Source of the DNA: Catajapyx aquilonaris
Taxonomy: Eukaryota
Direction: 5' to 3'
DNA length: 64,000 bases
NCBI GenBank assembly: GCA_000934665.2
Contig: JYFJ02001844.1
Location: 1-64,000 of the forward strand
Of the stretch, positions 39,201 to 42,200 are shown piece by piece. The stretch's first letter is position 1, and the number at the start of each line of letters is the position of its first letter. The translations under genes were made by a program, and so were the position numbers. Under the pieces are notes generated by a model. That model was not told the origin of the DNA. It saw only the letters and a program-made list of their open reading frames with translations, and made no database searches.

Positions 39201-42200
39201 AATTGCAAGAGGCGAATGCTCCCCAGTCAGCCTTCACTTGAAGCTAAACATTATTGCTTCAGAAATTGGCAAGAGTGGCAACAATATGGGGGCTAATGTC
39301 ATGCAATAAAGGACTCATTATTCAATAGCAGGGTGTCGCCAATATGAGTCATAAAATGGCGGAACATGTTGATAGCACGTATTCTTTATTAGAATTTTTT
39401 TTTGCATATCTAGTGAGCCAAGAAGTGGGTTCGTCGATGCGAATATTCGTAGAATTGCCATACTTGGTCATGAGGAGGTGAGAATTGGCAACCGAAATTT
39501 TCAAGCTGGCCAAGTCTATTGCGTAAAATACGATCACGTGGATTACTTCACTTTTTCGGGGTCGACACTGCCAAAGTGCAATATAGGTACACTCTTTGGG
39601 AAGTTTTCTGACAAGAGGTGTAAAAAAGGAGCAAACCCAAAAGTGTCACTTGGACCACGTCGGGACAATTGGGCGCTCTACTTTCGCTAGCAATTGGATG
39701 CGTCTATTTCTGTTTTAAATGTTCTTGCAGCCCACATACTATGACCACATAGAGCAACTGCAATGGGTTGATCCCAATAGTTGCTGCCAGAAGATATATA
39801 GTTCCAGCCCACCCAGAATCGGAATCTATTCTAATTAGCCAATATATTTTGTCTGGAGTAATTGAAGGGCAGCTCAGTTGTTTACATCGTGTCTGGCTAG
39901 GTCGCCTAATTAGCTGATTCTGCCAAAATAGTTTGTTAAACATGTGATCGATACTATCTGAGTTTTTCAGTACTTAATTTTGGTTGCAAATATTTGACTG
40001 TGAGTCGCAGAAGAATGCTCAAAATCAACTGGAATTTTGTTACAAGCGTATGAGGCAAAGAGGATGGATTCAAAGATAGGTAAAATCAACAGTGACGAAC
40101 GAAAAAGAAACAAACATGATCTAGACGGAATGGAAAGTAAACGGACAAAGCAGAGCTGGGAATTACTTTCCTAATCCTGTCTGACGAGGCGTTGGGGGCA
40201 CCTAAAAATAAAGGTCGGGGAAACACATTTCTGAGGTGAAGATGCCACCATGTGTTGACAGCCGTGTCTTGACGCACTTGGGCACGATTCCCTTCGAAGA
40301 TGTTTGGAAGGCCACACGTAATCCTCTAATAATTAATTGAACAGATGCGGCGTAGTTGGCGAATCAAATTCTAGTGCGCAAAATATTTGCTTAAAAATTG
40401 CGGACATTCTTTCCATGACCCTAGACAACGTCTCATTGGTCAGGATCATCGTCACCTGCTCGTTTAGTTGCCAAAAAAACATTTACGTCCTTGAACTAAT
40501 TTGCGTGCGTCTAAACAATACAATAAATAGGACTTAAAATAGACATTAATCGCATTGACCATGGCGATATTGCTTCCCATATTTTAAATTAGTCCAAACA
40601 CGTACAGACGACATCATAACCGACAAATGAGGTCGATACTATGCTTCCGTGTCATTTCATTGTCACCAGCACGTGTCGGACTTCCTCAATATCCCTCCAA
40701 AAATTTGAATACGAACAATATCGTTACCTTGGTTGCGGTGTAGCCTTTTGTGTCCCAGGTCTTTCCACCATCGTCGCTACGTCCGTATCGCACATTGCGG
40801 ACTTCTCGTTGCATCTAAATTGAAAGACAATACCGTCAGTACGACGAATAAAACTACTTCCTCACACACTATTCTCGGGAAGAAAAATTGTCGGGGTCAG
40901 AAAGCTGATTCAAAATAGAGTTTGCTGTGTGATATCCCAAGGCGCAATCCTGGGCGACATTCCAATCCAGAAACAGTCCAAGGTGATGAGACAATCTGAC
41001 ACATCCATCATTTATTTACCAGGGCGTCTCGTATAAATGGCTACTAATTTCAGGTCGAACAAAAATCCCCCCATTGTCTACCGAGATTTCCCAATTAACC
41101 TTGGGCACATGTCACATCACCAGTACCGATTGGTTCATGGCTGTGACGATATGTCAAATGACGAGCTATATATAAGAGACCTGATCTAATTTGGGGACAC
41201 TACGACTGACACTATGAAGGCGGGGATTTTCATATTGGTGTCTGCTCTGGTGGGTGTCACACTTGGTGTGACATGCCGCTTACAAGATGGCCAGATGGAA
41301 GCTACTTGCATCAGGATGTGCCAAAGACATGGGTACGACCAGGGAGGGTTATGTAACTCTGAAGACGGCAACTGTCATTGCCAAGGAGACAGTGCGAAAC
41401 CCAACAGCGTCAAACTATGTGAGTCATACCTCTGATTACGTGTAGCTTGTAGTTAACTGTACTGTTTCTTCTAGTGCATTTTGTCACTGGGAAGAAAATT
41501 AACAAGAGGCTGTTCTGGGGACCTGACTACCCTGATTATGGTACTGGTTGTGACCCTGATGTGTGTGCCAGCATCTGCTTTGACGAACACGAGTATTGTG
41601 ATGAATCATATTGTGATTACTATCAAGGGTGCGTTTGTGGAGGACCTATTGACACTTGTTAATCCATTGTTCTGTACATAACCTATATTAGCCATTATAA
41701 CTACTTCTGACATTGTTTGTCAAATTACCTGCTGGTAATGTACTACTTAATTGTAAATAAAGAATAGTTACTCACCCGTGATCCCTTGTCATTCGTGGAA
41801 CGTGTCAAGGGAGCGGAGTTGTCGTCGTCATCACCGTTGATAGGGACACGCTGCGACTTCAAGATTGGCTCTATGCCCTGCATTAGCACCTGTGCTCCAA
41901 GGAACTTGTTCAACAGAGAGCGTGCTTCTCGATCTGAGTCTGATTCACCTTCACGAATCACTAAAAAAGTACAATTTTAGTACCCTAAAAAGATGGTGAT
42001 ATGTGTGGACATACCTGTGTCTGACGCACGCATGCGCCTAACTACGTCTTGAACACCCGTTACAGGGTTTCTATCTTCCAAAAATGACTTGGATGGTGGC
42101 GAAGGGCTACGAGATCCTTTTGGGCTTCCACACCTCACTTCCATAGAAACGGAAGGTTGGACTCGACCCTTGCCAGGGGAAGGTGTCCTTCTACGGATCG

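Follow-up and report, generated by a model that had tools for sequence, protein, structure and literature searches.

An intron-nested gene of Catajapyx aquilonaris predicted to encode a secreted precursor with two unlike defensin-like modules

Do two short open reading frames (ORFs) that look unrelated encode one secreted precursor with two different defensin-like modules and, if so, what is the second of these, an acidic module with eight cysteines? This question is raised by a locus on the plus strand of Catajapyx aquilonaris contig JYFJ02001844.1, analysed here in a 64-kb stretch (positions 1-64,000, the window, to which all coordinates refer), in which one ORF spans 41190-41435 and contains an ATG at 41214, and the other spans 41453-41662 and contains the second of two cysteine-rich stretches. 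A preliminary description of the locus had proposed that these ORFs join in frame over a 56-bp intron and that both halves of the product have the cysteine framework of the cysteine-stabilised alpha-beta (CS-alpha-beta) fold, known from defensins and scorpion toxins. The locus is a compact two-exon eukaryotic gene that is expressed and real, and its product is probably a secreted precursor in which a signal peptide is followed by a six-cysteine module (domain 1), a lysine-rich linker and an acidic eight-cysteine module (domain 2), the precursor being cut at a Lys-Arg (KR) site and domain 2 having an activity of its own.

The gene consists of the following parts:

41169..41176, plus strand: TATA box (TATATAAG), recognised by sequence, 45 nt 5' of the ATG
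41214..41418, plus strand: coding exon 1, with the start codon, the signal-like peptide, the six-cysteine domain 1 and the start of the linker, ending in phase 1
41419..41474, plus strand: phase-1 intron of 56 nt (GTGAGT...TTCTTCTAG, 39% GC), skipped exactly by a contig of sequencing run X5
41475..41662, plus strand: coding exon 2, with the remaining linker, the KR site, the eight-cysteine domain 2 and the stop codon TAA, lying within the X5 contig segment 41475-41777
41756..41761, plus strand: AATAAA polyadenylation signal, recognised by sequence, 94 nt past the stop

From the TATA box to the polyadenylation signal the gene spans about 580 nt. The start codon stands in the context gacactATGA, with an A at -3, and exon 1 ends after the first base of a codon, so that the spliced coding sequence measures 393 nt, comprising 130 codons (14 of them for cysteine) and the TAA at 41660-41662, with no other stop. 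The intron is placed inside the linker, leaving one module per exon and neither cysteine module split. The peptide strings given in the preliminary description were correct in their letters but omitted ten residues between ...CHC and KLLHF.

Evidence for the splice comes from the five public runs that contain the stretch, four of which (X1-X4) are DNA, probably from the source sample, while the fifth, X5, for which the kind of library is unrecorded, derives from another sample and another study of the same organism and contains 0.40 of the words of the stretch. A 337-letter contig of this independent run (word depth 6.6) maps to 41386-41418 and 41475-41777, skipping exactly 56 letters with GT..AG ends and with 33 letters on its shorter side, and thereby joins 41418 to 41475 in the manner that had been proposed; in the DNA run X1 the stretch is covered without a break. 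The contig reaches 41777, past the AATAAA, although a contig alone is no proof of an RNA end. A second X5 contig (record 3, 1356 letters, minus strand) has a loose end at 41776. The consensus of this end, 30 letters long, occurs once in the window, at 40785-40814, giving a second exon-exon join from 41776 to 40814 on the minus strand, with intron borders GTGAGT / AG. Since a plus-strand splice and a minus-strand exon-exon join are found in the same run, X5 behaves as cDNA. The second join defines a further feature:

40815..41775, minus strand: host-gene intron of 961 nt, defined by the X5 join of 41776 to 40814, with the defensin-like gene lying entirely inside it in opposite orientation

The defensin-like gene is thus nested antisense within an intron of a larger minus-strand gene. 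Exons of this host gene lie at 40729-40814 and from 41776 to about 41950 on the minus strand, and the downstream exon carries a stretch resembling a BNR/Asp-box motif.

The encoded precursor contains four elements that bear on its nature:

41214..41267, plus strand: predicted signal peptide, residues 1-18, from hydropathy and the -3/-1 rule
41274..41381, plus strand: domain 1 core, C-x10-C-x3-C-x10-C-x6-C-x-C with GLC, net charge -2, from the cysteine array and an AlphaFold2 (AF2) model
41504..41509, plus strand: dibasic Lys79-Arg80, putative proprotein-convertase site, from sequence
41549..41659, plus strand: domain 2 core, C-x4-C-x3-C-x6-C-x4-C-x5-C-x-C-x6-C, from the cysteine array and an AF2 model

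A generic CS-alpha-beta cysteine pattern, run as a regular expression over all six frames of the 64 kb, matched only twice, at 41274-41381 and 41549-41638, both within this gene. One hundred windows simulated with a second-order Markov model served as the chance control and gave a mean of 0.04 matches and a maximum of 1, none of the 100 containing two, and the double cysteine pattern therefore exceeds chance. The ORF starting at the ATG at 41214 is also the sole one in the window in which a methionine and a hydrophobic stretch are followed by at least four cysteines. The order C...CxxxC...C...CxC, which had been proposed for both modules, is present in each. In domain 1 the spacing of 10, 3, 10, 6 and 1 residues fits the consensus of insect defensins, C-X5-16-C-X3-C-X9-11-C-X4-7-C-X1-C (PMC4996505), and the GxC of the gamma-core is present as G-L-C followed by x6-C. 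In domain 2 the CxxxC is formed by cysteines 2 and 3 and the CxC by cysteines 6 and 7, with one extra cysteine after the helix and one after the CxC. This is the same order as in the mollusc and nematode array described in PMC5116183, which upholds the earlier comparison of its spacing with the mollusc-type eight-cysteine peptides.

The N-terminus is signal-peptide-like, with a mean Kyte-Doolittle hydropathy that is 2.29 in residues 3-18 and -0.78 elsewhere in the product, and a candidate cut after G18, between TLG and VT, that has small residues at -3 and -1; secretion is predicted on these grounds, in agreement with the signal peptide assigned previously. Domain 1 follows the signal peptide directly, without a pro-piece, and the KR comes after it rather than before it. 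The core of domain 1 from its first to its sixth cysteine (36 aa) has a net charge of -2 and a pI of 5.35, and the positive charge is carried by the 24-residue linker, which has six Lys/Arg residues and a pI of 10.6 and ends in Lys79-Arg80. The N-terminal peptide through KR (62 aa) has a pI of 8.6, or 7.8 without KR, and a net charge of about +1 to +3. The 50-aa C-terminal peptide after KR comprises a 13-residue arm rich in Pro, Asp and Tyr and the eight-cysteine core, with a cysteine as its final residue. Lys and Arg are absent from it, and with 8 Cys, 8 Asp, 3 Glu and 6 Tyr its net charge is -11 and its pI 4.05. The earlier charge picture therefore stands for domain 2, which is acidic, rich in D/E/Y and free of K/R, but not for domain 1, the core of which is not cationic and owes the basic character of its peptide to the linker. 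An acidic context favours tyrosine sulfation, and the domain 2 tyrosines that are flanked by Asp or Glu may be sulfated.

The folds of both domains were predicted with AlphaFold2 from single sequences, no relatives being available to align, and the models are of moderate confidence for domain 1 and low confidence for domain 2. The domain 1 model has a pLDDT of 71.6 overall and about 81-83 over residues 11-40, with a helix at 11-20 (carrying C14 and C18) and strands at 27-30 (C29) and 35-38 (C36 and C38). The domain 2 model has a pLDDT of 52.6, with a helix at 16-26 (C19 and C23) and strands at 33-36 (C35) and 40-43 (C41 and C43), and in both models the CxxxC lies on the helix and the CxC on the last strand. 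In an unbiased structural scan with VIA-align over 48,161 PDB chains, domain 1 matched 35 chains with Z of at least 2, which by title were 25 defensins, defensin-like proteins, scorpion toxins, ABF-2 or mytilin, 7 unclassable and 3 unrelated, the top structure being drosomycin (Z 3.9, rmsd 1.6 over 36 residues). Domain 2 matched 12 chains at this threshold, of which 10 were defensins or defensin-like, 1 was unclear and 1 was unrelated, with termicin at the top (Z 2.9, rmsd 2.3 over 35 residues). Foldseek searches of the PDB gave drosomycin (E 0.72, TM 0.59/0.66), ARD1, plant defensins and scorpion toxins as the top rows for domain 1, and defensins or scorpion toxins in 7 of 11 rows for domain 2 (best E 1.3). 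The structural comparison called for in the preliminary description thus returned, for each domain, a helix and two strands with defensins and scorpion toxins as the nearest solved structures, and domain 1 can be assigned the CS-alpha-beta fold with fair confidence, while domain 2 probably has this fold too.

The presence of scorpion toxins among the structural matches raises the alternative that one of the modules, or each of them, is not an immune effector but an ion-channel toxin or another ligand of a venom or secretion. Language-model comparison placed both domains near CS-alpha-beta clusters (Toxin_3, Toxin_5, Antimicrobial25, Gamma-thionin and Defensin_2, scores 0.75-0.82), and the nearest clusters of both modules were scorpion sodium-channel and short toxins (0.78-0.82); some eight-cysteine scorpion K-channel toxins moreover have the mollusc/nematode cysteine pattern, according to PMC5116183. 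However, all of these scores lie below 0.9, the value under which a language-model neighbour is treated as a lead only, and Pfam gave no match of either module to Toxin_2, Toxin_3 or Toxin_5. As a rule, CS-alpha-beta toxins that block channels are basic, and the charge of -11 on domain 2 counts against a toxin. This alternative is regarded as improbable.

Searches for relatives returned none for either module. The Pfam comparison that was negative for the three toxin families was negative for Defensin_2 (PF01097) as well. In the sequence search of the PDB, the best defensin row for domain 1 was ARD1, with its cysteines aligned at a non-significant E of about 2, and nothing relevant was returned for domain 2; a viral TAP transport inhibitor retrieved with domain 1 (E 0.0017) is unrelated. 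Both halves matched only themselves in a tblastn search of the window, which revealed no paralogue there, and word-index searches with domain 1 gave 9 'longer' candidates and 1 'near' candidate, none at E ≤10. A HMMER search of 1.84 billion protein representatives with exon 2 gave five matches at E ≤0.001, to proteins of 458-1751 aa, which were rejected as chance, the two that were inspected being tandem-repeat proteins that share short words (LFWGP, for example) and the others matching in 4-8 short stretches. Three loci from a scan of metagenome contigs, matching over 9-17 residues around FWGPDYPD, were likewise rejected, the one inspected (L001) falling within a bacterial protein of 577 aa that has a signal sequence. 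Scans of viral contigs returned nothing for one query and, for the other, only the contig that also holds metagenome locus L002; a prokaryote genome scan returned nothing for the query run, and a 17-residue string of domain 2 did not occur in the searched literature. The libraries may be poor in this lineage, or hold few invertebrate proteins, since a large ORF neighbouring the gene is also without relatives, and the absence of relatives is weak evidence of novelty.

These negative searches, together with the lack of a paralogue in the window and the low contig depth, could be explained if the transcript were a young orphan, or the gene in decay, with a product that has no function and cysteine patterns that are relics or chance. 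Such an origin is hard to reconcile with the intact frame of 130 codons across the splice, the TATA box, the A at -3, the AATAAA and the signal-like N-terminus, nor would it account for two complete cysteine frameworks, a pattern that none of the 100 simulated windows contained twice, and it is therefore considered very improbable.

In the preferred reading, that of a processed secreted precursor, a kexin/furin-type convertase would cut after Lys79-Arg80 in the secretory pathway, yielding the weakly basic N-terminal peptide of 62 aa and a free, folded, acidic four-disulfide peptide of 50 aa. Alternatively, the precursor might stay uncut at KR and act as one bi-domain dipolar protein, in the manner of MtDef5 or of nasonin-2/-6. 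As a convertase site, a lone KR is weaker than RxK/RR, which counts in favour of an uncut protein, and the 24-residue lysine-rich linker, which is long and modelled as disordered (pLDDT 49 over a block at residues 41-50 of the domain 1 piece), counts against it. Single-chain bi- and multi-domain cis-defensins have been described (PMC5700942, PMC2853521), but insect prodefensins are usually processed at a KR that immediately precedes a defensin domain (PMC4996505), and an uncut precursor is regarded as quite unlikely.

A further alternative accepts the cut but makes domain 2 a mere pro-region, that is, an anionic extension which aids folding and masks the basic part and is inactive after cleavage, as has been proposed for mytilin, myticin and the class II plant defensins. 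The mytilin precursor is laid out as a signal, a CS-alpha-beta core and an anionic C-terminal part (PMC7168163), and a cytoprotective C-terminal propeptide has been described in a plant defensin (PMC3922462). The sharp shift in charge across KR, where a linker of pI 10.6 gives way to a C-terminal peptide of pI 4.05, agrees with such a role. The charge to be masked is small, however, with -2 on the domain 1 core and +1 to +3 on the N-terminal peptide, against -11 on domain 2, and domain 2 keeps eight cysteines in CS-alpha-beta order and models as a helix and hairpin. Known mytilin-type extensions are short and free of cysteine. The account of the mytilin extension in PMC7168163 is of a divergent anionic region, and that account mentions no cysteine framework. 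An anionic region behind a basic site, as in the mussel precursors, is found here, whereas a simple pro-piece joined to a cationic core is not, and a pro-region without activity is judged unlikely.

The same values weaken the suggestion, made previously, that domain 2 serves as a neutralising partner of domain 1. A complex prediction for the two domains, in which the partner's own fold was uncertain, scored 0.01 (mark 0.34) and speaks neither for nor against a contact. A separate activity of domain 2 is favoured because its charge of -11 is far above the +1 to +3 to be neutralised and because the full cysteine framework is kept. Within the processed-precursor reading, domain 2 would be a folded peptide that does not attack membranes in the manner of cationic peptides; its target could be, for instance, a cationic protein, a metal or a mineral.

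The structure of exon 2 also bears on how such a gene could have arisen, since it consists of a phase-1 boundary, a few residues followed by KKINKR as a short pro-piece with KR, and an unsplit cysteine domain. For this reason exon shuffling or fusion is the most likely origin, in which a mature-defensin exon would have been placed behind an intron-less defensin-like unit. An unsplit mature-defensin exon flanked by a phase-1 intron is described for the defensin genes of scorpions, molluscs and arthropods (PMC6435467).

Several results weigh against the processed-precursor reading and the fold assignments on which it draws. Transcript support comes from a single contig of depth 6.6 from a run of unrecorded library kind, and the X5 contigs cover neither 41000-41371 nor the 5' part of exon 1, so that the transcript start is unobserved. 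Domain 2 has no GxC at the canonical cysteine (...ESYC...). With E values up to 10 allowed, an hmmscan search of Pfam-A returned no family for the domain 1 half or the domain 2 half, and a BLASTP comparison of the two halves, which differ in cysteine number (six and eight), gave no alignment at E up to 100, so that the modules show no mutual similarity. Without relatives of either domain, there is no evidence from conservation or covariation for selection on the product. With Foldseek, neither model had a match in the PDB at E ≤0.001, all E values being at least 0.7, and every VIA-align Z was below 4, a range that can reflect a common arrangement, though the domains measure only about 36 residues. 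The pLDDT of 52.6 makes the domain 2 model a low-confidence one, and single-sequence models of cysteine-rich peptides may track the cysteine pattern, in which case they are not independent of the regular-expression matches.

A bolder proposal is possible but doubtful, namely that domain 2 is the first member of an undescribed class of strongly anionic CS-alpha-beta peptides with four disulfides and many Asp and Tyr residues. Such peptides would be co-released with a defensin-like peptide and would bind a cationic protein, a metal ion or a mineral surface instead of attacking membranes, and the gene would make the shuffling of a mature-defensin exon onto another defensin gene directly visible. 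Few effector scaffolds of immunity and venoms are as widespread as the cis-defensins, which are nearly always studied as single cationic modules. A precursor in which a near-neutral six-cysteine module is joined to an eight-cysteine module of charge -11 behind a dibasic site would widen the scaffold's range of charge and architecture, and would supply a concrete gene in which exon shuffling, a route proposed long ago for defensin evolution, can be read from intron phase and exon content. The locus also offers a small, synthesisable acidic peptide, and it illustrates that such genes can hide in introns as two short ORFs left unconnected by ordinary ORF tracks. The practical weight is moderate, as this is one orphan gene.

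Two short motifs flank the start of the gene:

41061..41070, minus strand: kappaB-like decamer (GGGGATTTTT), lying some 100 nt 5' of the TATA box, no more than a lead
41222..41231, plus strand: kappaB-like decamer matching GGGGATTYYY, which together with 41061-41070 flanks the gene start

The string GGGGATTYYY, which we take to be a kappaB consensus (a literature search for consensus strings gave only unrelated primer matches), has three matches in the 64 kb against 1.05 expected, and two of the three are those flanking this gene. Such a pair within 200 nt occurred in 1 of 300 simulated windows, in a test made post hoc, and the pair hints at immune regulation.

The window is eukaryotic, as its spliceosomal introns, TATA box and AATAAA indicate. 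Two very long ORFs on the minus strand, at 31446-37583 (2046 aa) and 49764-54899 (1712 aa), encode Ser/Pro/Gln-rich products without a Pfam family or detected relatives, no relative of the 1712-aa ORF being found among 6121 candidates. The frame adjoining the latter (48747-49760) shows a weak likeness of the Smoothelin type, with an E of 0.0027 that does not pass the cut-off, and a similar motif is seen by eye at 37547-37753. Pfam searches of 57 further ORFs of the window returned only sub-threshold matches to LRR_6, Smoothelin, Ecl1 and EcoR124_C, among which the leucine-rich-repeat (LRR_6) match falls in a 263-aa frame at 14831-15619 on the minus strand. A tRNA-Ser (GCT) gene or tRNA-derived element lies at 20284-20355 on the plus strand (Rfam 31.6 against a threshold of 29 bits). 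Minisatellites are present at 61913-62278 (11 copies of a 33-nt unit, open in several frames on both strands) and at 60276-60423 (6.8 copies of a 22-nt unit), and hairpins at 3000-3092 (minus strand) and 26040-26109 (palindromic, both strands) have a sub-threshold likeness to mir-942 and mir-4041 that is probably due to chance. The GC content of the window is 44% and its CpG observed/expected ratio 0.74; between 24 kb and the end of the window, a part that takes in the gene-rich half, the ratio is 0.63-0.73. The GpC value is 0.98. This CpG depletion is consistent with a genome that has gene-body methylation.

Comparison with known systems places each part of the gene near a different group of peptides. 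Domain 1 resembles the insect six-cysteine defensins (sapecin, heliomicin/ARD1, drosomycin and termicin) in its spacing and its GxC, within the consensus given in PMC4996505, but it lacks a match to Pfam Defensin_2, has a core of net charge -2 instead of a cationic one, has no pro-piece, and continues into a basic tail of 24 residues and then the second module. Many insect prodefensins have KR or RR before the mature peptide (PMC4996505), and the release of a cationic peptide after such a pro-piece is not what is seen for domain 1.

Domain 2 resembles the eight-cysteine peptides of molluscs and nematodes (MGD, myticins, ABF/ASABF) in the order of its eight cysteines, which correspond to the C2-C6 and C8-C10 positions of a reference array that in these peptides pairs as C2-C6, C3-C8, C4-C9 and C5-C10 (PMC5116183); the likeness of domain 2 is one of cysteine order. 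The nematode Antimicrobial25 (PF16839) cluster is a language-model neighbour of domain 2 (0.78, a lead only), whereas ABF-2 and mytilin are structural matches of domain 1 and not of domain 2. Domain 2 further differs from these peptides in having no sequence match to them, in its net charge of -11 where they are cationic, in the absence of GxC before its fifth cysteine and in its 13-residue N-terminal arm rich in Tyr, Asp and Pro.

As a precursor, the product is closest in the order of its parts to mussel mytilin, myticin and MGD, which have a signal, a cationic CS-alpha-beta peptide and an anionic C-terminal extension with a sharp shift in charge at a basic site (PMC7168163). The mytilin extension is there said possibly to aid three-dimensional folding and to neutralise positive charge, and exon shuffling is invoked for that extension; mytilin genes have four exons. 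The present gene differs from them in that its anionic part is an eight-cysteine module, its first module is not cationic and it has two exons rather than four.

Tandem arrangements of such domains are also on record. Nasonin-2 and nasonin-6 of Nasonia vitripennis have 4-5 defensin-like domains, one per exon, with phase-1 introns between them (PMC2853521), and thus share with the present gene the tandem animal cis-defensin-like domains, the single domain per exon and the intron phase; their domains are, however, repeats of one type that arose by exon duplication, whereas here the two modules are unrelated, differ in cysteine number, are opposite in charge and have a KR site between them. Two CS-alpha-beta defensin domains in one polypeptide are found in other kingdoms as well, in the plant MtDef5, which has two similar, highly cationic plant-type eight-cysteine domains of 50 aa joined by 7 residues (PMC5700942), and in the two-domain fungal Bizyarsin; more than 70% of the defensin-like peptides of Zymoseptoria are neutral or anionic (PMC5234102). 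Open-literature searches for two-, double-, bi- or multi-domain defensins, which did not cover subscription journals, returned no animal case with two unlike modules, MtDef5 and Bizyarsin being the sole cis-defensins that they brought up.

Because nasonin-2/-6, MtDef5 and Bizyarsin are already in print, the class of architecture is not new, and the earlier suggestion of an undescribed family, while compatible with searches that found no relative, has to be narrowed to this extent. Multi-domain cis-defensins were already known, and what is new is the heterotypic form with an acidic second domain. The product is therefore not a new kind of molecule but a new arrangement of a known fold of immune and toxin peptides.

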